This document shows positions 937 through 63,947 of a stretch of DNA of 64,000 nt, in pieces. The notes below the pieces were generated by a model. The model saw nothing but the letters and a program-made list of their open reading frames with translations. It was not told the DNA's origin and made no database searches. A program made the position numbers and the translations under genes. Numbering within the stretch: the stretch's first letter is position 1; every line of letters begins with the position of its first letter. This stretch comes from a virus. Its lineage: Duplodnaviria; Heunggongvirae; Uroviricota; Caudoviricetes. The stretch lies in the IMG/VR virus record IMGVR_UViG_3300045988_157791; one strand, 5' to 3'.

Positions 937-1857
937 TTATTCCTGTGCAGCAGTGACTTCTACGGTCGCTGTCGCTTTGTGGCTACCATCTTGGGTAGTA
1001 ACCTCGATTGTGGCAGTACCAGCCGCAACGCCAGTTACAACACCGGTTTCGCTATCCACCGTTGCAAACTCGGTATTTTTGGATTCCCAAGTAACGGTTT
1101 TATTTGTTGCTCCTGCCGGCTCGACATTTGCGGTCAGCTGAACAGTTTTGTTTGCCTCAACGGTTGTGCTATTTGGGTCGATTTCGACGCCGGTAACAGC
1201 CACAACAGGCGCAGTTACTTCCACCGTTGCAGTTGCCTTTTTGCTGCCATCTTGGGAAACGATCTCAATCGTCGCAGTGCCAACTTCTACACCAGTAACG
1301 TTCCCGCTCTGGTCTACCGTTGCCTTATCTTCATTTTTGGAAGACCAGGTAACAGCCTTATTCGTCGCATTTGACGGCTGAACATTCGCTTTCAGACTGA
1401 CTGATTTCCCTTTCTCAACAGACGTTGATTCTGGCGTTACCGTTACGGATTGAACGGCTACCGGATTTACGGTGACTTCCACTGAAGCGGAAAGCTGGGT
1501 TTCCTGATCAGTTGCAGTAATTTTTACTTTGCCTGATGCTACGCCAGTTACTAATCCAGTGCCGTTAACGGTTGCAATTTGGTCATTGGCTGACTTCCAG
1601 GTGAATGAACTGGCACTCTTACCCATACTAATACCTGCACTAAGTTGAACAGTTTTCCCAACCAAAACTGACGGTGAAGCCGGGGTTATGTTTACGGATT
1701 GGGAGAGGGGAACCGCCTGCAAACAAGCAGATAGCTGACTTTGTTGCCGCTCGGTTAAAGGTTCATCGGAGATAGAATTGGTAAATCCGGCACGGCACAT
1801 ATGCCCCGTAAAATCCGAAAATGCCTCTTCTGTAATCTTCATCTTTTGTTCTGGCAT
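937..1857 (-). CDS. Ig-like (Big_2-type) tandem-domain protein, probable capsid decoration/accessory protein
   Basis: Three tandem ~70 aa repeats with pattern L.A.V.P..ATNK.VTW.S.N...ATVD..G.VTGV..GTATI; sits directly downstream of capsid gene. Confidence 0.6.
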   Translation of the reverse strand: MPEQKMKITEEAFSDFTGHMCRAGFTNSISDEPLTERQQSQLSACLQAVPLSQSVNITPASPSVLVGKTVQLSAGISMGKSASSFTWKSANDQIATVNGTGLVTGVASGKVKITATDQETQLSASVEVTVNPVAVQSVTVTPESTSVEKGKSVSLKANVQPSNATNKAVTWSSKNEDKATVDQSGNVTGVEVGTATIEIVSQDGSKKATATVEVTAPVVAVTGVEIDPNSTTVEANKTVQLTANVEPAGATNKTVTWESKNTEFATVDSETGVVTGVAAGTATIEVTTQDGSHKATATVEVTAAQE

Positions 1858-1870
1858 TTCTCGCTCCTAC

Positions 1871-1900
1871 AAAAAGGGTGGGCGTATAGCCCACCCTTTA
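1871..1900 (-). terminator. intrinsic terminator-like hairpin between capsid and Ig-like gene
   Basis: GGGTGGGCGTATAGCCCACCC stem-loop flanked by A-run/T-run; on minus strand followed by TTTTTG. Confidence 0.45.
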
Positions 1901-1930
1901 ACATAGATAACTACCTATCTACCACACTGA

Positions 1931-2806
1931 TTAAATTTTTACATTGGTCAGTGCAGCGATAGCCTTATCGTGCTTATTCGCCAGAGAGCAGTACCACTTC
2001 ACACGGGTACGTACTGCGTCTTTGTTCTGTACAGTACCAATGTTTTCAACAACGATACCTGCGTTGTCGCCGCCATACAGACCAGTAACGCCGTTCTCTT
2101 CTGACAGATGCAGGCAGTAGATGCTTGCTTTGCCAGAATCGGTCGGGATGAAGTCGTTGATGATGAACGGAACGCCGTTATGACACAGCATCGGACGACC
2201 GAAGTTCTCCATCATGATTTCAGACGGACCTACGTTTACTGTACGCAGCAGCGCACGGTAAGCACGCAGGTGCTCTGAACGCATCATGATGCAGTCAGCA
2301 CCAAGATCTTTCACCGCATCGACCAGTTCGTCGAACATAGAGAAAGTCATAGATGCACCGGCGATATCGATCTTCTGATCTGCGTGCATCAGGCGTGGAA
2401 TGCCGTCAAACGCCTTGTTGTTGGAGCTGGAGTCACCCAAAATCAGGTTGCGACGGAACGCACGAGCCAGACCTTTAACTTTCTGACGAACCTGAATAGC
2501 CAACTGGTTGTTGGTGTCGGCCATAGTGGTCGCCAGGAATTTATCAACGTCTACGTCACCAGCCAGAATACGCAGTTTCGCAACGCATTCTTCGAAGGTT
2601 GCTGCACCTTCAGGGATGGTGTCGTTAACGTCGATGAAGGTAGCTTCACTCAGCGTTTTTTCACGGTTGTACAGATATGCCTTTGAATTAATTTTCATAA
2701 AAGGCAGGATGGCAAACAGGTCATCGCGATCGATGATAGTTTCGATCACACCCTGTTCAAGTTCGTTGTTAGACAGCTTTTCAGCTTCTTCACGCAGTAA
2801 TGGCAT
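1931..2806 (-). CDS. putative major capsid protein
   Basis: 291 aa; position between scaffold-like and decoration-like genes downstream of portal; identity by gene order and general resemblance only. Confidence 0.5.
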   Translation of the reverse strand: MPLLREEAEKLSNNELEQGVIETIIDRDDLFAILPFMKINSKAYLYNREKTLSEATFIDVNDTIPEGAATFEECVAKLRILAGDVDVDKFLATTMADTNNQLAIQVRQKVKGLARAFRRNLILGDSSSNNKAFDGIPRLMHADQKIDIAGASMTFSMFDELVDAVKDLGADCIMMRSEHLRAYRALLRTVNVGPSEIMMENFGRPMLCHNGVPFIINDFIPTDSGKASIYCLHLSEENGVTGLYGGDNAGIVVENIGTVQNKDAVRTRVKWYCSLANKHDKAIAALTNVKI

Positions 2807-2831
2807 CTATCAATTCCCTTTGATTTAGATG

Positions 2832-3719
2832 TTACTTAAGTCCAATTTTCCCCAGACCGGAGGCCAACTTATCCATAGTCGACTTATTCTTCGGTTGGGA
2901 TATTGTGTAGGTCGATTTGGAATGTGAGCCTACACCCTGCTTGGCTTCGCTACGCATCAATGCGTCAGCTTCCGGATCTGCCCGCACAATGCGTTCAATC
3001 GCGGATTCAAACGGCAACGGCTTACCTTCACCGTCAACCAGAACAGCTCGTTCTTTGTGACCTGCCGGTTTGTCATAACCCACTACGCTACCGTCTTCAC
3101 CCACTTCAAAATGAGAACCGTAGATCACGCGGGCTTTTGCCGGGGTCATCAGAACTTTGTCACGTAGGAAGAGAGAGTTACTGAAGGAAGCGCCCACGGT
3201 CATCTCGACTAATTGAGATTTCAGTGATGCGTTTTCACTTTCCAGTGCTGCATAACGTTCGTCACGCTGTGCCAGCTCTGCCTGGTGTGCTTCGATCATC
3301 TGTTTTTTAACAGCATCGAACTCACCACGACGCTCCAGTTCAGCTTGCTCCGCCTCACGACGTGCGTTTTCTGCGGCCTGTTCAGCTTCTAAAAGCTGGC
3401 GAGCACGAGCCGGATCGATATCACCGTACTGAGCAAGCTGATCGGCCAATGTGCGCTCTTTCTCTTTGCGCTTCATGTTCTCCTTCAGCAGTTCAGCACC
3501 AGCTTTCTTGGTTTTACGAAGTTCGGCCAGTAACTCTTCCTGAGTCATGCCAGCGTATTCGTCATCGCCCTTCGGCTGCTCTTTTTGTTCACCCTGTTTG
3601 TCAGGATCTTGTGTACTCTGCTCATTATCAGCAGCTACACCGCCAGCGCCTCCACGCTCATGCGCTTCAGCGACATCCATCAGACCACGACGGGCCAAAA
3701 GCATTTGCCACAGATTCAT
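2832..3719 (-). CDS. putative scaffolding protein
   Basis: 295 aa, highly charged, long predicted coiled-coil (EAEQAAENARREAEQAELERR...), between portal and capsid. Confidence 0.5.
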   Translation of the reverse strand: MNLWQMLLARRGLMDVAEAHERGGAGGVAADNEQSTQDPDKQGEQKEQPKGDDEYAGMTQEELLAELRKTKKAGAELLKENMKRKEKERTLADQLAQYGDIDPARARQLLEAEQAAENARREAEQAELERRGEFDAVKKQMIEAHQAELAQRDERYAALESENASLKSQLVEMTVGASFSNSLFLRDKVLMTPAKARVIYGSHFEVGEDGSVVGYDKPAGHKERAVLVDGEGKPLPFESAIERIVRADPEADALMRSEAKQGVGSHSKSTYTISQPKNKSTMDKLASGLGKIGLK

Positions 3720-3740
3720 AAAAATTCCTTTTGTTACTTA

Positions 3741-5315
3741 TCACTCGTTCTCTTGAGTAGATGAGTCCCCATTCCCTCGGGGTTGATCTTGCCCGCTTTC
3801 TTGGGCTGCACCACGATCATAAGTAAGTACTGACTTATTTTCAAGGGTATTTAGATCATTTTTTGGAGGAAAATTCAAGAGATCTTTATCAAATTCCTTT
3901 TTCATCGCCTCAGTAATGTTCGGGAAAATCTTCTCAATAAGCATTTCCATCTGGTGACGACGTACAGAGTCCGGTGCCTGAAGTAATGACAGTTTCTCGG
4001 CAACAGAAAATTCATCAGTAAGGCCACGAATATCGAAACTTTCTGGATATGCAATTAAAGAGTGGTCTTCGTCCAGATCTACCCCCATCCATTTCGCAAC
4101 CAGTAGCATGATTTGGCGTTCAGCCCTTTCCAGACGCTCTGCTTTTGTGACAAGCAAGCTATTTACACGCTGGAAGTCATACATTTTTGCGGCACCAGAT
4201 GAATTATCGATTCCCTGTGCGTTGTCCTGCTTCGTTCGCTCACCAGCTACACCAACTGAATGGTAGATTTCGTTAATCACCGTCTTAATCGTAGTGATGA
4301 TCATCTGAGCTTGTTTCGGGTCTGGTGACAGATAAAACGGCTGGTTTCCACCTTCAGAATCGTAGGTGAAGACTCGCTTTGTGCCCATTTCAAGCACTTT
4401 AGTGTGGTTTTCATCACCAGGTAAAAGCGACTGTACCGGTATAGCCAACTGGCTAAATGTCTGATCCTGAATAATGGCATCAAGGTTTGACAGATAGTTT
4501 GCAACCGCACGATCAAGATAAGCGATATCATCGATCAACGATGGGCTGAAATACGGTGATTCACTTTCTCCAATACAATCAACAGGAAACACAGGAACTA
4601 CGCCGAGATTATGCTCACCGCTATCCTCTAAAATAACTTTTGCCTGACGGCGACCTGCTCCACCAGCGCCCTTCTTCACTTCCTCACGGAACAGATACCA
4701 CTCGTTTTGTGTCCACAGACGATAACGTTGGTATTCCTGACCTGTAGAAGTAAAAGGATCTGCGTCATCACGAGCGACTTCCACAATTAACGCCCACAAC
4801 ATATTCCCGTCGTCGTCCCATGCCACATCCAGCATTTGCTGAGGTGAAATCCAGTAGGCGTAGGCGCGAGCATCTTTCTTTTTCTCGTCAGCTACTGACT
4901 CAACATCACCACTCATCGTGCTATCGACAACAACCCATATGCGACCGTAAATAGACGACTGCAAATCAATAGCGGCCATAAATGAGTCAATAGAGGCATT
5001 CTGGCGAGTCGCACGTTTCCAGAAATTGCGGATCTGCTCTGGTGCCTCTTCGATATTTCTATGAATGTCTTCTTTAAAGAGATATTTGTTGATGAGGTTT
5101 ACCACCTCACGAGTGTGGTTGAAGCGATAAGCACGTTCAACTCGCTCCTTAAACTCCTGATCTCCCTCTTTAAAGTAACGAAAGATATTGTCTGTAAACC
5201 AACCACGCCCGCCAGCGTAAGTGCTGGCGAGGAAGTCCCAATGTTCTTTTTTCTTTTCGTATTCCGGGTGGCGTCGCGCCACCAGATCCTTAATTTGTTT
5301 GTCGTTCAATTCCAT
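3741..5315 (-). CDS. putative portal protein
   Basis: 524 aa ORF immediately downstream of large terminase; size and position typical of portal. Confidence 0.5.
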   Translation of the reverse strand: MELNDKQIKDLVARRHPEYEKKKEHWDFLASTYAGGRGWFTDNIFRYFKEGDQEFKERVERAYRFNHTREVVNLINKYLFKEDIHRNIEEAPEQIRNFWKRATRQNASIDSFMAAIDLQSSIYGRIWVVVDSTMSGDVESVADEKKKDARAYAYWISPQQMLDVAWDDDGNMLWALIVEVARDDADPFTSTGQEYQRYRLWTQNEWYLFREEVKKGAGGAGRRQAKVILEDSGEHNLGVVPVFPVDCIGESESPYFSPSLIDDIAYLDRAVANYLSNLDAIIQDQTFSQLAIPVQSLLPGDENHTKVLEMGTKRVFTYDSEGGNQPFYLSPDPKQAQMIITTIKTVINEIYHSVGVAGERTKQDNAQGIDNSSGAAKMYDFQRVNSLLVTKAERLERAERQIMLLVAKWMGVDLDEDHSLIAYPESFDIRGLTDEFSVAEKLSLLQAPDSVRRHQMEMLIEKIFPNITEAMKKEFDKDLLNFPPKNDLNTLENKSVLTYDRGAAQESGQDQPRGNGDSSTQENE

Positions 5316-30875: not shown

Positions 30876-32561
30876 TCATTTAACGCGTTTGAAAACGTAT
30901 ACGCTGACTGTGATCCCTGTGTCTTCAAACTCGTTGGTAAACGACTTCCCTCTGGCATAAACGTAATTATCCATCGTCATCCAGTCCAGTATTGGCGCAG
31001 TGCCCGGCAATACTGCTACAAGACGCCCGCCGACTTTCAGATGCCCCAGCGCAGCCAGCGTGTGCTCTCTATGACGACCAAGCGAGTACGGCGGGTTCAT
31101 AACGATTTTGTCGAACTGATAACCTACGTTGTCCTCAGACCACTTTATGAAGTCGCAGCAAATCGTGTTCGTATACCCTTTTCCGCGCAGGATATCAGCG
31201 AAGAGAGGTGCGATTTCTATGCAGGTAACATCTTCCAGATCGGCGTTGATATAGGCCAGAAGATCCCCACGTCCGGCTTGAGGCTCCAGCAGCTTCTCAC
31301 CAGACTTCAATTCAGTGGCTCTGGCAACGTACTCAGCAATCAAGCGTGGGGTAGGGTAGAACTGGTGTGATTTTGTATCCGGTATTAATCCGGTAGCCAC
31401 AATCGTATTTAGCGTATGGCCGATCTCATACGGGAACTGCCAGTGCTTTTTCTCCTGCACGCCGCCAATGAAGCTCAGTGTGCGCTCAAGCTCTTCCACC
31501 TGCGACTTCTGGAGAGCTGAATCAGAGAAGTACCATACGCCTTTGTCTTTGCTTAATCGCCCGTCACGAAGCGCAGTGCGAACCGGCACGGAGATCGTCT
31601 TCTGGATTAACCCGAACTGCTTTGGTGCCCGTGTTTTTGGCGCGGTGCGACATGGCGCGGGGATTGCAGCAGGCATACTGTAAGCCAGCACCTCATTCAA
31701 CTTCCAGGCCACGTCAGGATGTATTTCAAAGTGAACGTTGCCGTTCTTGAACATCTTCACGCGCATTAGATTTCCATCGACGTTCATCCAGTCACCGGTC
31801 TGGCAGTCGTTTGCCCGATACGCAGCTGATAGCACCTCAGCAGTGCGGTTGATGGTAATAAATTCTTTGTGCGCGAAGAAATGAAGCAAGACACGCAGAT
31901 CGTCGATATAGTCCTCTTTGCGATAGTTCACACTAACGCTGTCCCGCCAGAAATCAGAAATGCAGTCAGCGATTATCAGACGTTCGCTGAAACCGTTTGT
32001 CTTATTTGTCTTGTGCGCAGGACTCAGCGCCTTAAACAAGCCATACACGCGCTCAGAGAGATATTTGTGCCTGTCATTCAGCAAATTAAGCATCGTGGGT
32101 ATGACCGTTTCTGCTTTGAACTCCGGTACACCAACGAACTCTTTAACCTTCATCTGGTAGCCGGTTCTGTCAGTTTTGATGACTTCCTGTTTGCCCTCTA
32201 TAAACTGCTCGCGCCACTCATCTCGACGGGAAGCTGGCATGATCAGCAAAACGTTAGTCATGTCCGTGACCTTCCTCCAGTACTCGGCCCAAATATTCTG
32301 TTTCACCCATTCCAGATCGACTTTATCCAACCAACCTCGATTTAAACGCGAGCGATCTTCATCTGGTCGATGGTTTAGTCTCAGCAGGCGATTAATCATG
32401 TTGTGGCGTTCGTCGCCATAAACGAAGTCGTGTACCTGATACATGAAGGCGATCTCTTTCTCGCACTCGGCCACAATTTCGTGGATGACGTTCATTTCCT
32501 GCCGATAGTCGATAGCAGTGTTTGAGTTGGCATCGTCGATGATGGAAAGGGCTGTATTCAT
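30876..32561 (-). CDS. DNA methyltransferase (NPPY motif) with ~400 aa N-terminal domain of unknown function
   Basis: C-terminal region has AdoMet motif I-like EPQAGRGDL and motif IV VMNPPYS; N-terminal two-thirds unassigned. Confidence 0.55.
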   Translation of the reverse strand: MNTALSIIDDANSNTAIDYRQEMNVIHEIVAECEKEIAFMYQVHDFVYGDERHNMINRLLRLNHRPDEDRSRLNRGWLDKVDLEWVKQNIWAEYWRKVTDMTNVLLIMPASRRDEWREQFIEGKQEVIKTDRTGYQMKVKEFVGVPEFKAETVIPTMLNLLNDRHKYLSERVYGLFKALSPAHKTNKTNGFSERLIIADCISDFWRDSVSVNYRKEDYIDDLRVLLHFFAHKEFITINRTAEVLSAAYRANDCQTGDWMNVDGNLMRVKMFKNGNVHFEIHPDVAWKLNEVLAYSMPAAIPAPCRTAPKTRAPKQFGLIQKTISVPVRTALRDGRLSKDKGVWYFSDSALQKSQVEELERTLSFIGGVQEKKHWQFPYEIGHTLNTIVATGLIPDTKSHQFYPTPRLIAEYVARATELKSGEKLLEPQAGRGDLLAYINADLEDVTCIEIAPLFADILRGKGYTNTICCDFIKWSEDNVGYQFDKIVMNPPYSLGRHREHTLAALGHLKVGGRLVAVLPGTAPILDWMTMDNYVYARGKSFTNEFEDTGITVSVYVFKRVK

Positions 32562-32664
32562 AATTGCACCATTAAGAAGTGATTTGTTTAATGGTGCAAT
32601 TATTTCAAAAATGAAAAGGTACTAAATAGAAATAAACAGGCAATCCTTCAAATAAAGGCATTGG

Positions 32665-33336
32665 CTAATCATACTTGGAGGTATTTATCACCAGAATTTT
32701 GTTTGTATAAATCTTCTTAATATCCCATGTGACATTACCGGAATACCATTGACCGTTATATACTTGGTTTCCAGTTGCACCTGTCATTGTTACATAGACA
32801 GGTCTGTCGTAATCGGTTCGTCTATAGTTATATACCCCAACCATAGCAGGCATTACCGCACATGGATACCCCATATCTATTGTAAATTGAGGGTCAGAAA
32901 TAGTGATAAGTTTCGCATCAAGGGGCATCATCTCACCGTGATACACCATTGCGCCTGCGCTGTTATACATGGCAATGCCATAGCCAGAATGTGGTAACAC
33001 CATATCAGAAAAAGCATAAACTGTTATTGTTCCGGGGCTACCATTTACCTGATGCAATCTGAGAGCATTGTATCCGTTACTATGCTCATGAATAAACATC
33101 ATGTTCGCCTTATTACTGCTTTTTATGAAGAAAAAGCATGATTTGTTTGATGGGATTGATGTTTGAAAAACAGAACCTTTAGATGTAGACATTGTCCCTT
33201 TATTAATCAGATTTTGCGGAGTAAATTCTGGACTCATCCACAAACTTCCATCTGATTGAGTAATTGACATCCCGAACATAATTATCCCCAGTATGTGTAT
33301 ATGTAAGAACCAAGCCCCGTATATAAATTTGACCAA
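32665..33336 (-). CDS. hypothetical protein in AT-rich insert
   Basis: ORF starts with TTG in track; overlaps upstream ORF in a different frame; markedly AT-rich DNA. Confidence 0.3.
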   Translation of the reverse strand: MVKFIYGAWFLHIHILGIIMFGMSITQSDGSLWMSPEFTPQNLINKGTMSTSKGSVFQTSIPSNKSCFFFIKSSNKANMMFIHEHSNGYNALRLHQVNGSPGTITVYAFSDMVLPHSGYGIAMYNSAGAMVYHGEMMPLDAKLITISDPQFTIDMGYPCAVMPAMVGVYNYRRTDYDRPVYVTMTGATGNQVYNGQWYSGNVTWDIKKIYTNKILVINTSKYD

Positions 33337-33563
33337 CTAACCGTATTTCCATTAATAGTAACTGTTGGAACAGGTAAATTAATGTAGTTGTCGTTGTTAA
33401 GAGGCATCAATGACCACACGGCATGTAGCGATTTACCCGGTGGCGGATTGGAGTACGTCTTAGAGCCTGATGACGCAGTAAATCGATCAAGAAAAAAAAT
33501 AGGAGTAAGGAAGCCAGTAACGTTAATTCCTTTATTGTTGTAAATCCCTGTACCGTATGCCAT
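33282..33563 (-). CDS. hypothetical protein in AT-rich insert (possibly N-terminal part of a frameshifted gene)
   Basis: 93 aa, N/T/G-rich; overlaps 32665..33336 by ~55 nt. Confidence 0.25.
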   Translation of the reverse strand: MAYGTGIYNNKGINVTGFLTPIFFLDRFTASSGSKTYSNPPPGKSLHAVWSLMPLNNDNYINLPVPTVTINGNTVSWSNLYTGLGSYIYTYWG

Positions 33564-34327: not shown

Positions 34328-34486
34328 TTAACACGTTGCTTTACGGACTAGCGGATAAGCGAAGTAGATCGCCAGACCAATGAGGACGCCATCAGAAATG
34401 ACAGACATCATCTTTCCCGTAAAATCCACCAACACCGCCATCACCAGAAGAGCAATGACGGTCACAAGCCGGAATCTCTCAAGCAT
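34328..34486 (-). CDS. small hydrophobic peptide (52 aa)
   Basis: ATG overlaps stop of TerB-like gene (TAATG); MLERFRLVTVIALLVMAVLVDF...; followed by hairpin terminator ACAAGGGCCATTTGGCCCTTGT; below ORF-track cut-off. Confidence 0.3.
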   Translation of the reverse strand: MLERFRLVTVIALLVMAVLVDFTGKMMSVISDGVLIGLAIYFAYPLVRKATC

Positions 34487-34911
34487 TAGAGATAAGCATC
34501 CAGTGACAACTGAAGCGCCTGTGCGATCTTTTTCAGGGCCAGCTCTTCTTGTTCGCCAATACCGTCTTGGTCGGCAATATCAAGGCACAGACACAGTACA
34601 TCTACTGCATCATTAGTCCCGGCCACATCAGCCAGCTCACGTAAAGCCTGGGCATTAGCGCGGCGCGGTGAGGCTTCGTATTGAGCACGGATATTGGCGC
34701 TCATTTGGGCAATCTCACCAGCAAACGGAGAAAACGCAGGCAGAGCTGCAATTGTTTTCTCAAGAATGGAAATTTCCTTTGCGTCGCATGTGCCATCGGC
34801 ATAGGAGATCATGTACGCGCCCCACACGGTGGCTTCAACCGCATCTCGGTTCTCCATTTTTTTGACCTCGATAACAGCTTTACGAGTTTTCTTTTTGAAT
34901 AAACCTAACAT
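34486..34911 (-). CDS. TerB-like domain protein (tentative)
   Basis: 141 aa all-alpha protein with TerB-like pattern (AYMISYADGTCDAKEISILE ... LCLCLDIADQDGIGEQEELALKKIAQAL). Confidence 0.35.
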   Translation of the reverse strand: MLGLFKKKTRKAVIEVKKMENRDAVEATVWGAYMISYADGTCDAKEISILEKTIAALPAFSPFAGEIAQMSANIRAQYEASPRRANAQALRELADVAGTNDAVDVLCLCLDIADQDGIGEQEELALKKIAQALQLSLDAYL

Positions 34912-36519: not shown

Positions 36520-37030
36520 TAAAATAAACAAATTACTTCCCAGAACAGGTTTTTATAAACCTGAACTGAACGAACGAAGTGAGTGAAGTTCACCTCGAAC
36601 GAAGTGAGAGGTTGTCTTTTCAGGTAATACTCTCCCAGGGAGGTGAGTATAAAAATCCCTCACCAACCTGGTCGTTTCATAACCTGAAAAGTTATGGCCT
36701 AAGTCTACTGCCAGCTTAGACTTGGGAAGTTATGGATGACAGCACCCCAGAACCGAGATCTTCCCACACTTTATGAAGGGGAGTACTGGATTCAACCTCT
36801 CGAAACACCCCAGACTCGACAATCATAAAGTGACCCTTGTCTCCGCTCACTTTGGTTCCCCCTTCCCCGACACCTAAACGGCACCGGTTCTACGCTGGTA
36901 GTGAGCTTTTTTAAACCTGACGCCAGTGACGCTTACCCCCACCCATCAGGTCGAGTCTCCAGTCTACGACTGGAAACTATCAGATCTTAGCACTTACAAT
37001 TCACTTTATGAATAGTTTGTACTTATCTAT
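36520..37030. other. ~500 bp non-coding region with multiple stem-loops and short direct repeats (candidate ncRNA or cis element)
   Basis: No ORF >60 aa; direct repeat CGAACGAAGTGAG x2, hairpin GGTGAGTATAAAAATCCCTCACC, ACCCCAGA.CGA x2, terminal GCTCAC...GTGAGC + TTTTTT. Confidence 0.35.
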
Positions 37031-37445: not shown

Positions 37446-38039
37446 CTAAGCAGCCTTCTTTGATGGTCTTTTTTTCCTGATCACATTCGCAGGATCATAC
37501 CCTCCCAGACTTTTCATGACGTCCAAAGGGATCTTGCTTATAGAGTGCCCAGCGTCCTGACAGAATCCTCGAAAAACAACGAGCATACTGCCACCTGGGT
37601 TGATGTTTACTTCTACCTGACCCAGATTGACGTCAGGCTCGACAAACGCTACGCGGCCACCAGACAGAATAATCGTCTCATTCGCACACTCTGTTGCACG
37701 CTCATACCACTTTGTATCTAGGGATTGAGGAATTAGCATCACTGTTGTAACTCCGCGAGCCTGCTCACGTATAGCCGCATCAATCCAGGGGGAGATTTTG
37801 GAGTAGGGTGGATTGAGGAAGGCAATTGTACCTGGCTGTCCCCATTCAGATTTCAAAGCATCACGCTCAACGCCTATGAAATTAGGCAGCTTTGCATTGT
37901 CCTTGTTGCAGGCAACGTCAACATCAAATGTCACTCCAAGATAACGTTGAATGGCAGAAAACAGCCAGTCAGGTGTTCTCCAGAGGTCACGAAGAGAGTT
38001 GTCGCGCTTTCGCTGTTTGATTTTTTCGGCTGCAATCAT
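37446..38039 (-). CDS. phage-type N6-adenine DNA methyltransferase (Dam-like)
   Basis: 197 aa with WRTPDWLF and FLNPPYS motifs. Confidence 0.7.
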   Translation of the reverse strand: MIAAEKIKQRKRDNSLRDLWRTPDWLFSAIQRYLGVTFDVDVACNKDNAKLPNFIGVERDALKSEWGQPGTIAFLNPPYSKISPWIDAAIREQARGVTTVMLIPQSLDTKWYERATECANETIILSGGRVAFVEPDVNLGQVEVNINPGGSMLVVFRGFCQDAGHSISKIPLDVMKSLGGYDPANVIRKKRPSKKAA

Positions 38040-53073: not shown

Positions 53074-53160
53074 AATCGTTTTTTCAGTAGTTATTGGCCG
53101 ATGCTACGATAACTCATTAGGCATACCTTAATCTGCATTTGCCTGTTTTACTTATCCCAG

Positions 53161-53810
53161 TTATCCACTGGATAGATCCAAATAAGAGATCCCAAGTAAG
53201 ATCAAATAGAAGATCCAAAGAGATCCCCGATCGCCTCTAGCCGTTGCGGTTACTGGTCTGAAAGGGTGTTGCCATCCACTATGGAGAGCAAAGAAACCTC
53301 TGTAGAGAGCTGAATAACCGCTATGAAGAGTAAAACAACCACTCTGGAGAGCTGTATATATCCACTGTAGAGAGTAGAGCACATTGTCTTTTATGGATAA
53401 CTTAATGACTTAATTCTTCATTAACATACTGATATACATAGATATATTTTAAACTCTACTCTTAGTCATGATTCTTATGTCCTTAAATATCCACAGAAGA
53501 GTAGAGTTACCTGTTCTTGAAATCCTCTGATTTTTATCCACAGGCCCGATCCAGTAATTCAGATCACAAAGAGAACCAAAGAGACCCATAAAGACCCAAT
53601 AAGATCCCCGCCCACCTCAAACCGTTGTGCCATCTGCCTTCAGACATGATCGATATCCACTATAGAGAGCGAATAATCCACTATAGGGAGCAAAGCAACC
53701 ACTATAGAGAGGAGAAAAACCACTATAGACGGTAGGATAACCGCTGTGATGAGTGCTACTATCCACTGTAATCAGCAAAGGCCACCAAAGCCGTCGAATA
53801 ACAAGAGACA
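53161..53810 (+). promoter_or_regulatory. plasmid-type replication origin: two GATC clusters, DnaA-box-like sites, two sets of 21-bp-phased iterons
   Basis: Six GATC in 53176-53232 and more at 53548-53651; TTATCCACA at 53534; iterons (A/T)NCCACT(A/G)T(A/G)GAGAG at 53275,53296,53317,53338,53360 and 53655,53676,53698,53719,53740,53761. Confidence 0.7.
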
Positions 53811-53816
53811 TTTGGA

Positions 53817-54872
53817 ATGAGCGAAAACGGCAATAAAAACATAGCGATCGTTGAAGCATTTTCAGAAACAGATAAAAAGACAGGCGAAGTTGTTACGTTG
53901 GTTCCTAACACTAATAACACTGTTCAGCCTGTTGCTTTGATGCGTCTGGGCCTCTTCGTTCCGACGCTGAAATCGACATCCAGAGGAAGAAAGGGGCAAA
54001 TGGTCTCTATGGATGCCTCTGCTGAACTCAAACAGCTGTCTCTGGCAAAAGCCGAAGGGTACGAAGACATAAGGATCTCTGGCCTTCGGCTTGATATGGA
54101 TAACGACTTTAAAACGTGGGTGGGAATAATCCACGCGTTTGCCAAACACAAGGTCGTTGGCGATACTGTCACGTTGCCGTTCGTTGAGTTTGTAAGGCTG
54201 TGTGGCATTCCGACCGCCAGGTCATCAGCGAAGTTACGCAAACGCCTGGACAGTTCGCTAAGCCGTATTGCCACAAATACCATCTCGTTCCGTAGCAAAG
54301 GCTCTGATGAGTTTTACGTAACGCATCTTGTGCAAACGGCAAAATATAGTGTCAAGCACGATACGGTCGAACTGAAAGCAGATCCCAAGATTTTCGAACT
54401 CTACCAGTTCGACAAAAAGGTTCTTCTGCAACTCCGGGCTATAAACGAACTCTCAAGAAAAGAATCCGCTCAGGCGCTTTATACTTTTATTGAAAGTTTG
54501 CCGCCTGATCCGGCACCAATATCACTAGCCCGTTTACGCGCCAGACTTAATCTGACAAGTCGCACTATTACTCAGAATGCGACGGTAAGAAAGGCTATGG
54601 AACAGCTGCGAGAGATAGGATATCTCGATTACACGGAAGTTAAGCGCGGAAACTCGGTCTACTTCGTCATCCACTATAGGCGGCCAAAGTTACGCCAGGC
54701 ACAAATATCAACAAAAATCGATAATGATGAGACGGAATATAGCCTCCCAGATGAGAATCAAGATGACATTATCGACGTTGTGCCTGACGAAAAAGAAGGC
54801 AAAATGGTCATGTTGAGTAAAGAAGAACTGGCGCTTCTCGAAGAGTTGCGCAAGGCAAAGACTCGCAAATAG
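53817..54872 (+). CDS. repA: iteron-binding replication initiator RepA (P1/RepFIB family)
   Basis: [54 protein letters not shown] closely parallel P1-type RepA as recalled; flanked by iterons. Confidence 0.7.
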
Positions 54873-63127: not shown

Positions 63128-63456
63128 TGATGCCCGCCAATTGGCGGGCATCTGTTCTCTGTAAAGGTGTCTGGCATCGTCTGGTTCGTTAACGTTTACT
63201 AAACCAATGGTGACAAAAATTAGTTATCTTTGAAAAATAAAGGTTGCATGAAAAGAAGGGGTATGCGTTAATAGCATCGTTGGTTTGCAAGACAGACCTT
63301 ATGTAAGCAGTTTTAGTAAAGCAGTCTCAGTTCAGTGTTATCTTCTGATTTCCCTTCTTCGTGAGTCTCCTCCTTAAGTGCCTAAGTAAGTCCCAATCTA
63401 TACAGATCAAATTCTCGCCGCACTATGTGGCTCACAAAATTAAGAAGGTAATATCT

Positions 63457-63672
63457 ATGTCTAATAAAATGACTGGTTTAGTAAAATGGTTTAACTCTGA
63501 TAAAGGCTTTGGCTTTATTTCTCCTGCTGATGGCAGTAAAGATGTTTTTGTACATTTTTCGGCAATTCAGAGTAATAATTTCCGCACTTTGGAAGAAGGC
63601 CAGCAGGTCGAATTCTCTATCGAGAATGGGGCTAAAGGCCCAGCAGCAGCAAATGTCGTTGCTCTAAGCTGA
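63457..63672 (+). CDS. CspA-family cold-shock protein
   Basis: [38 protein letters not shown] (RNP1/RNP2); ORF-track start 63361 rejected in favour of ATG 63457 with AAGAAGG RBS. Confidence 0.85.
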
Positions 63673-63947
63673 TTCAACGCTGATGATCCTCATTTCTACA
63701 ATAACGAAGACGGTGTAAGCCTGAGTGGATAGATTTGCAGGATTGTACAAGTTGAATAAATTAGCATGGTAAGGCCATGCTAATTAAATCGACACAACGG
63801 CCAGTTTATTCCATAAAAGTGAATTGCCCATTGTGGCGAAATGCGGGGTTGCCGCATGAATAGTCAAAGGCAGAAGCTAACTGCCGGCATGGCAAAACAA
63901 AGTGCGTAAGAGGAGTGACTTCCTCAACAAGCGCCATAATTCTTTAT

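Follow-up and report, generated by a model that had tools for sequence, protein, structure and literature searches.

The window, that is, the whole stretch of DNA analysed here, comprises 64,000 nucleotides of a Caudoviricetes virus (IMG/VR record IMGVR_UViG_3300045988_157791). It carries two genes encoding methyltransferases, one for a 561-residue protein at 30876–32561 and one for a 197-residue protein at 37446–38039, both on the minus strand. The 9-kb stretch around the two genes exhibits 98.2% identity to Escherichia phage CMS-2020a, 97.7% to phage Cyrano (the phage-plasmid pLF82 of E. coli LF82), 99.9% to the E. coli plasmid NZ_CP020118, and 83% to Salmonella phage SSU5 across 57% of its length. 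These identities indicate that the window is part of an SSU5-like phage-plasmid. Both genes sit in a long minus-strand run of genes with accessory and DNA-metabolism functions, including Ead/Ea22-like, Eaa-like, RNase H, DnaQ-like exonuclease, DHFR, ThyX, PNK, RNR, and SbcCD genes. SSU5-type phage-plasmids are common in clinical Enterobacteriaceae, and their host range partly hinges on escaping restriction. They have also been reported to spread resistance genes (PMC9600943).

The 561-residue open reading frame (ORF), with its stop codon at 30876–30878, lies exactly where the initial annotation placed it. Its methyltransferase motifs are confined to the C-terminal part, as was claimed there, and all fall within the last 30% of the chain. 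The protein matches PHROG 6263 ("DNA methyltransferase") with an E value of 7.1e-300, residues 1–561 covering positions 1–548 of the 548 in the profile, and RefSeq proteins of 99–100% identity carry the name "DUF4942 domain-containing protein". Three parts can be distinguished. Residues 20–305 (31647–32504) form the DUF4942 module, with a helical N-terminus and an alpha/beta core. Residues 306–392 (31386–31646) comprise a basic proline-rich linker (TAPKTRAPKQF) and a small hypervariable domain with a predicted alpha-beta-beta-alpha-beta-beta-alpha order, as read from the structural model. Residues 393–561 (30879–31385) form a minimal Rossmann-fold, S-adenosylmethionine (SAM)-dependent amino-methyltransferase domain of the NPPY type with gamma-type motif order, presumably acting on adenine-N6.

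In the translation of this domain, QFYPTP (residues 400–405, 31347–31364) is a motif X-like "FxTP" element that precedes motif I. Motif I, LEPQAGRGD (residues 425–433, 31263–31289), represents the SAM-binding loop; TCIE follows at residues 446–449 and CDF at residues 469–471. Motif IV, NPPY (residues 489–492, 31086–31097), represents the catalytic pocket for the target base. Across an alignment of 27 homologues with identity down to 34%, residues Q400, F401, Y402, P403, and P405, the motif I residues P427, A429, G430, and G432, and the motif IV residues N489, P490, and P491 are invariant. The conservation of the SAM-binding and catalytic residues at this distance means that the methylase domain is very probably active. 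Among the ORFs of at least 100 residues in the window, only the 561-residue and the 197-residue ORFs contain a [DNS]PP[YFWH] motif.

The AlphaFold2 model of the 561-residue protein has a mean predicted local distance difference test score (pLDDT) of 82.3 and a predicted template modelling score (pTM) of 0.68. The domain exhibits the Rossmann-like seven-strand fold of class I SAM-dependent amino-methyltransferases along with their conserved motif I loop and motif IV. PADLOC type II methylase models match it with an E value of 2.8e-10. The best PDB sequence match is M.TaqI, in an alignment that runs from motif X to NPPY and places QFYPTP on the TaqI "ETPPEV" region, with a marginal E value of 0.1. 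The isolated domain scores 18.6 bits against Pfam N6_Mtase (PF02384), under the cut-off of 20.4, and the distant homologue P0100 has a precomputed match to this family.

Gamma-class enzymes such as M.TaqI, M.BseCI, and CamA, and the type I subunit HsdM, have a C-terminal recognition domain or a separate HsdS subunit. In contrast, the 561-residue chain, alike in motif order, ends 69 residues past NPPY with the last strands of the fold, and about 390 residues of unrelated sequence precede its catalytic domain. Since the chain stops where the fold stops, it lacks the C-terminal target-recognition domain of the gamma class.

Homologous methylase domains occur in giant multidomain phage proteins (PHROGs 9133, 15406, 11358, 18947, and 10691; E 3e-50 to 2e-8), whose profiles of 1,259–3,925 positions show no DUF4942 match. 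These giants may include P1 DarB-like capsid-packaged anti-restriction proteins. The MADS methylase mad2 (PADLOC PDLC04134) matches the domain with an E value of 5e-15, and its own domain likewise lies toward the C-terminal end (265–401 of 492). The catalytic domain alone matches; the other MADS genes are not annotated in Cyrano, and the scanned neighbours have no PADLOC match. The 561-residue gene is a phage orphan, not a member of a defence island.

The second gene is the compact phage Dam-type methylase that had been proposed. Its product scores 131.8 bits (E 2.5e-38) against Pfam Dam (PF05869), with a cut-off of 28.1, and 113.9 bits against the NCBIfam equivalog TIGR01712 (phage_N6A_met), with a cut-off of 97.05; it matches PHROG 111 with an E value of 1.6e-65. 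NPPY is found in its translation at residues 76–79 (37803–37814). Relatives turn up in 1,979 phage records, and the protein is a plain member of the phage orphan Dams of T1, HP1, and Stx-converting phages. Like these, both ORFs are phage-borne and lack a cognate nuclease; the 561-residue protein is unrelated to them in architecture. The Dams of T1 and Stx-converting phages are GATC-specific. By analogy with such characterised relatives, GATC specificity is assumed for the 197-residue enzyme, which shares 39% identity with the Dam of Stx-converting phages. GATC occurs 283 times in the window against 258 ± 13 expected, a count compatible with Dam specificity and not diagnostic of it. GATC avoidance as a sign of restriction pressure was considered and rejected, as there is no depletion across the window.

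Modular architecture and the DUF4942 module

The first 400 or so residues of the 561-residue protein had been described as unassigned. This does not hold for residues 140–295, which match the uncharacterised Pfam family DUF4942 (PF13708) with 74 bits against a cut-off of 25. DUF4942 is named in five papers, each time in passing in a gene list. The N-terminal region gave no match, by fold or sequence, to a solved or curated methyltransferase target-recognition domain. When the PDB was searched by sequence and by profile, neither the whole protein nor the N-terminal profile nor a profile of stand-alone DUF4942 proteins gave a significant match. The proposal in the initial annotation that the N-terminal region could be a target-recognition or regulatory domain is not supported as stated: the module is the most conserved part of the protein and shares homology from end to end with stand-alone DUF4942 proteins.

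A distant tblastn match led to such a protein, the 251-residue product of Pseudoalteromonas phage PS_L5 (WMM36541.1), which matches DUF4942 over its full length (Pfam E 1.9e-46) and contains no other domain. Its relatives form 48 clusters, all of 199–289 residues and all with DUF4942 only. In a profile-profile comparison (hhalign), residues ~26–305 of the fused family align with positions 13–251 of the stand-alone family with a probability of 99.85% and an E value of 9e-31. This coverage shows that the N-terminal module is a complete DUF4942 protein with an added beta-hairpin. The hairpin (residues ~124–142) and an HPD motif are particular to the fused family and absent from the stand-alone proteins. 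The core common to both families consists of W, PxF, R, F, KTN, DLxR, GNxH, and NxxI/LA, which correspond here to W95, P146/F148, R171, F176, T185-N186, D221-L222-R223, G274, H277, and N289. The products of L0010/orf56-type genes of E. coli and Shigella islands are further examples of stand-alone DUF4942 proteins, again with no methylase domain.

Conservation varies strongly along the chain. In the 27-sequence alignment, the mean pairwise identity is 29% for residues 1–89, 53% for residues 90–305 (the DUF4942 core), 32% for residues 306–394, where insertions and deletions are found, and 49% for residues 395–561. Conservation is thus highest in the DUF4942 core and lowest in the small alpha/beta domain that precedes the methylase.

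Natural recombinants reveal where the modules are joined. The homologue P0044 is a clean chimera with a breakpoint around residue 300. Its residues 1–300 are 97–98% identical to the E. coli/Citrobacter type and its residues 301–560 are 99–100% identical to the Klebsiella type, two types whose methylase domains are only about 48% identical. PHROG 9133 matches residues 328–560, that is, most of the small variable domain together with the methylase, as a single unit. The chimera and the span of PHROG 9133 therefore indicate that the natural unit of exchange is the variable domain plus the methylase. Another pair of homologues, P0047 and P0078, differs chiefly in residues 306–394, with 56% identity there versus 90% and 81% in the flanks, which indicates that the small domain has also been exchanged by itself in P0047. 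Judged by its sequence variation, the variable domain (residues 306–392) is a better candidate for the determinant of specificity than DUF4942.

Among 1.84 billion representatives clustered at 50% identity, a profile of residues 1–392 matched 1,521 proteins with E ≤ 1e-3, of which 418 reached E ≤ 1e-30. Nearly all of the best 150 of the 1,521 matches are 510–590 residues long with the module at the N-terminus. Split versions, with a DUF4942 gene and a separate methylase gene, were sought, and none was convincing: the shorter matches appear to be copies with a truncation or a frameshift, such as those ending in "...AFQSL" or "ESHQFWETQ...".

Distribution, orphan status, and transcription

Of 5,426 complete E. 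coli genomes, 251 carry the 561-residue gene, and plasmids account for 247 of its 256 matched places. The N-terminal module occurs in 41 phage records, including phages of Aeromonas, Pseudomonas, Vibrio, and Marinomonas. The gene family is thus common and catalogued, and a 100%-identical copy is already public; what is new is the dissection of the architecture and the realisation that its largest domain is uncharacterised.

Among the nine chromosomal matches of the gene, one was inspected and proved to be a spacer in an array of clustered regularly interspaced short palindromic repeats (CRISPR). In the type I-E array of E. coli AST85 (NZ_AP043644.1; L010 1473–2173) it is the spacer closest to the leader, and all 32 of its 32 bases match window positions 31855–31886 (plus strand), inside the 561-residue ORF. 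An ATG protospacer adjacent motif (PAM) at 31852–31854 precedes the match. Immunity to the element, directed at the 561-residue gene, has therefore arisen in at least one E. coli lineage.

Five distant contexts of the gene were compared, a Variovorax prophage, an Enterobacterales prophage, phiPSA1, vB_AsaM-56, and P12026. In all five the gene belongs to an early or nin-type region, with repressor, antirepressor, replication, or NinG genes in its vicinity, and in three another orphan methylase is close by. No nuclease is found beside the homologue in any of the five. The whole annotation of Cyrano, 98% identical to the present element, contains no restriction enzyme, and its only methylases are these two. 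The neighbouring genes scanned with Pfam and PADLOC yielded no nuclease; they encode unknown, Ead/Ea22-like, or membrane proteins. Both methylases, with their catalytic motifs intact, are therefore orphans, as the initial annotation had supposed. Nor was a nuclease fold or motif detected in residues 1–392 that would make the larger protein a restriction-modification enzyme.

The counterpart of the 561-residue protein in Cyrano is CYRAN_90, with 99% identity over residues 1–392, and that of the Dam-type protein is CYRAN_79. In re-analysed RNA sequencing data of the LF82 lysogen (two averaged samples), their transcripts were at 7.8 and 6.0, respectively, those of the neighbours of both genes at 6–13, and that of the repressor at 96 (PMC9928086 S1 Table). 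Thirteen Cyrano genes were above background, and neither methylase is among them (PMC9928086 Table 1, S1 Table). The paper on Cyrano does not discuss the methylases (PMC9928086). Because both transcripts are at background level in the lysogen, self-methylation during the lytic cycle fits better than control of the origin.

Directly upstream of the 561-residue ORF there is no promoter-like site. Terminator-like sites on its strand first occur, going upstream, at about 34.3 kb, with more farther out, so the gene seems to share a transcript with the genes that precede it. A perfect 16-bp stem with a 12-nt loop (AUAAUUGCACCAUUAA...UUAAUGGUGCAAUUAU) lies at 32559–32604 (minus strand), upstream of the start codon and overlapping it. 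The stem buries a GGUG Shine-Dalgarno-like element and the AU of AUG, with an RNA minimum free energy of −20.6 kcal/mol (z −5.5 versus shuffles). It is identical in Cyrano, reduced to a 5-bp core in SSU5 and GArcari, and absent in pJN2-26. It may attenuate translation in a lineage-specific manner or serve, at the DNA level, as an operator palindrome.

Proposed function and alternatives

We favour, with modest confidence, the explanation that the 561-residue protein is an orphan DNA adenine-N6 methyltransferase of the lytic programme, which depends on its upstream domains and shields progeny DNA from restriction. The 169 C-terminal residues would act as a minimal catalytic domain, binding SAM through motifs I–III and receiving a flipped adenine in the NPPY pocket. 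As no C-terminal target-recognition domain accompanies it, the sequence upstream must provide both the binding to DNA and the choice of site. Sequence preference may be set by the hypervariable small domain, possibly with the variable beta6-beta7 loop (residues ~521–540), and, most tentatively of all, the conserved DUF4942 module may serve as a generic platform that holds or positions the DNA. The enzyme would be produced on prophage induction and would methylate the replicating DNA before packaging, so that the methylated progeny would withstand restriction on entering another host. For GATC-type sites, the Dam-family enzyme would play a like role. Anti-restriction by self-methylation, already put forward in the initial annotation, is the most economical reading, given the orphan status and the early-region phage contexts, with no nuclease beside the gene in the five compared.

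Several points weigh against this explanation. DUF4942 occurs as a stand-alone protein whose neighbours, compared at three loci, do not resemble the 561-residue family, which points to a function independent of a methylase, and its high conservation is unlike that of a typical recognition domain. We infer lytic expression solely from silence in the lysogen. The literature gives no activity, substrate, or motif for any member of the family. The hosts matter as well. E. coli and other enterobacterial hosts possess their own Dam. As Dam of E. coli already covers GATC, the benefit of the second enzyme depends on the host.

An autonomous function of DUF4942 is a serious rival because the module is conserved and exists independently, and we regard two functions in one chain as possible, if rather unlikely. 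DUF4942 would then be a phage effector in its own right, for instance an anti-defence or a DNA- or protein-binding factor, that does not serve the methylase. The fusion would co-deliver activities for establishment or counter-defence, or would tether the methylase to a DUF4942 target such as the replisome or a host defence complex. The 48 clusters of stand-alone proteins, the equivalence of the fused module to a whole such protein, its conservation above that of the catalytic domain, and its recombination independently of the methylase cassette all favour this rival. So do the stand-alone loci. Six neighbouring genes at three such loci show no similarity to the profile of the 561-residue family, the methylase domain included, so the function of DUF4942 does not require a fused or adjacent methylase of that type. 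In two metagenomic phage contigs, the stand-alone gene (L014 4805–5566; L015 5001–5762) follows a portal gene (Phage_portal_3); in the former it is placed between the portal gene and a Mu-F-like head gene, and the latter ends just past it. The slot beside the portal gene is often home to capsid-associated or ejected proteins, and this position may hint at the role of the stand-alone protein. It was also reported that the DUF4942 genes of E. coli and Shigella islands adjoin KlcA/YfjX, RadC/YeeS, and CbtA-type genes (PMC6980539).

On the other side, the fusion is extremely stable over hundreds of clusters and has no convincing split version, which speaks for functional dependence. For DNA recognition by itself the catalytic domain is too small, and no homology to any known anti-defence protein was detected. 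Somewhat more doubtful still is the stronger proposal that DUF4942 is an autonomous module of new fold, which binds or neutralises a component of host defence or replication or recognises DNA in a novel manner. If DUF4942 is autonomous in this way, the 561-residue family would be a two-pronged counter-defence protein, with an effector or anchor (residues 20–305) and a swappable cassette of specificity domain plus methylase (residues 306–561). It would then represent a previously undescribed class of modular phage methyltransferases, and the stand-alone DUF4942 genes, in phages as well as in genomic islands of E. coli and Shigella, would gain an assigned function.

It is unlikely that one or both methylases are epigenetic regulators that mark the element DNA for control of replication, packaging, or expression. 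The origin that such control was thought to involve does exist. A cluster of seven GATC in 300 bp, near 53.0–53.3 kb, compares with a window average of about 1.3 and adjoins DnaA-box-like sequences, iterons spaced 21 bp, and repA. The origin is P1-oriR-like (53150–53800, plus strand), lies upstream of repA (53817–54872), and consists of two tandem modules about 380 bp apart, each with a DnaA-box-like TTATCCAC, a series of repeats that contain GATC, and the iterons. The first module has six GATC in ~70 bp; in the repA-proximal module most GATC sites have decayed to GAACC or GACCC. The part at 53.15–53.24 kb would be one target, and the 197-residue enzyme is a member of a family, the phage Dams, that is GATC-specific. 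In P1, both pac cleavage and the replication of the plasmid depend on GATC methylation, a precedent that lends this alternative support by analogy. Control by the element's own Dam is weakened by the background transcript level of both genes in the plasmid state and by the Dam that enterobacterial hosts provide. Moreover, the 561-residue family also occurs in integrating prophages without such an origin, and the methylase genes are ~15–22 kb from the origin with no regulatory link apparent. Our literature search found no methylome study of an SSU5-like element.

Methylation of RNA (adenine of rRNA or tRNA) or protein (glutamine, HemK-like) by the C-terminal domain, instead of DNA, seems very improbable. 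The stronger matches are to DNA methylase models (the PADLOC type II methylases, mad2, and PHROG DNA-methyltransferase families), QFYPTP aligns with the corresponding segment of M.TaqI, and the gene is found in the company of replication genes and other DNA methylases.

The idea that the N-terminal region conceals a nuclease, which would make the protein a single-chain restriction-modification enzyme (type IIG/IIL-like), can practically be dismissed: some phage records name homologues "RE endonuclease", a weak PADLOC type IIG match covers the methylase part only (E 0.0013), and in the model a conserved beta-beta-alpha segment that contains H277, H281, and N289 might bear a superficial likeness to a His-Me finger, but no PD-(D/E)xK or canonical HNH signature is conserved, H281 is not conserved in stand-alone DUF4942 proteins, the C-terminal recognition domain that type IIG/IIL enzymes need is missing, and a self-restricting enzyme would be odd in phage early operons beside orphan methylases.

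If the favoured explanation of an orphan DNA methyltransferase holds, knowing the marked sites would help to predict which hosts are open to these elements and to explain unassigned N6-methyladenine (m6A) motifs in methylomes. DUF4942 is the more general prize, as a conserved phage protein that occurs alone and fused and has no structural relative. The fused family offers a handle on it: a methylation read-out can report the binding of DNA or a partner, and the natural chimeras show where the joints are.

Other features of the window

Just upstream of the 561-residue ORF, at 32665–33563 (minus strand), are a gene for a 223-residue "membrane-associated protein" (PHROG 425) and an adjoining 93-residue ORF. 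Their DNA is 78–80% identical to that of the otherwise unrelated phages JenP1, JenP2, and BRET, of about 60 kb. This segment is a mosaic, moron-like insertion adjoining the methylase gene. Further upstream, 34328–34911 (minus strand) holds a small membrane ORF along with a gene for a TerB-domain protein (PF05099, E 1.2e-6); the Cyrano annotation calls them P1 TciA/TciB-like. The pair is a further P1-type accessory module within the SSU5-type backbone.

The sole family match in an Rfam scan of the window for regulatory RNAs is a full-length cspA thermoregulator at 63279–63697, plus strand (RF01766, 185.7 bits against a gathering score of 78), which is unrelated to the methylase genes. Its presence implies a cold-shock-protein gene with a regulatory 5′ untranslated region (UTR) on the phage-plasmid.

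A 44-residue ORF with a GTG start lies at 36716–36850 (minus strand), between the RNase H gene and the Dam-type gene, and has no Rfam match. It is a homologue of CYRAN_81. The CYRAN_81 transcript in LF82 lysogens was at 117 against a local background of ~8, about 12-fold (PMC9928086). Either a small protein or a non-coding RNA may be expressed from the homologue in the prophage state.

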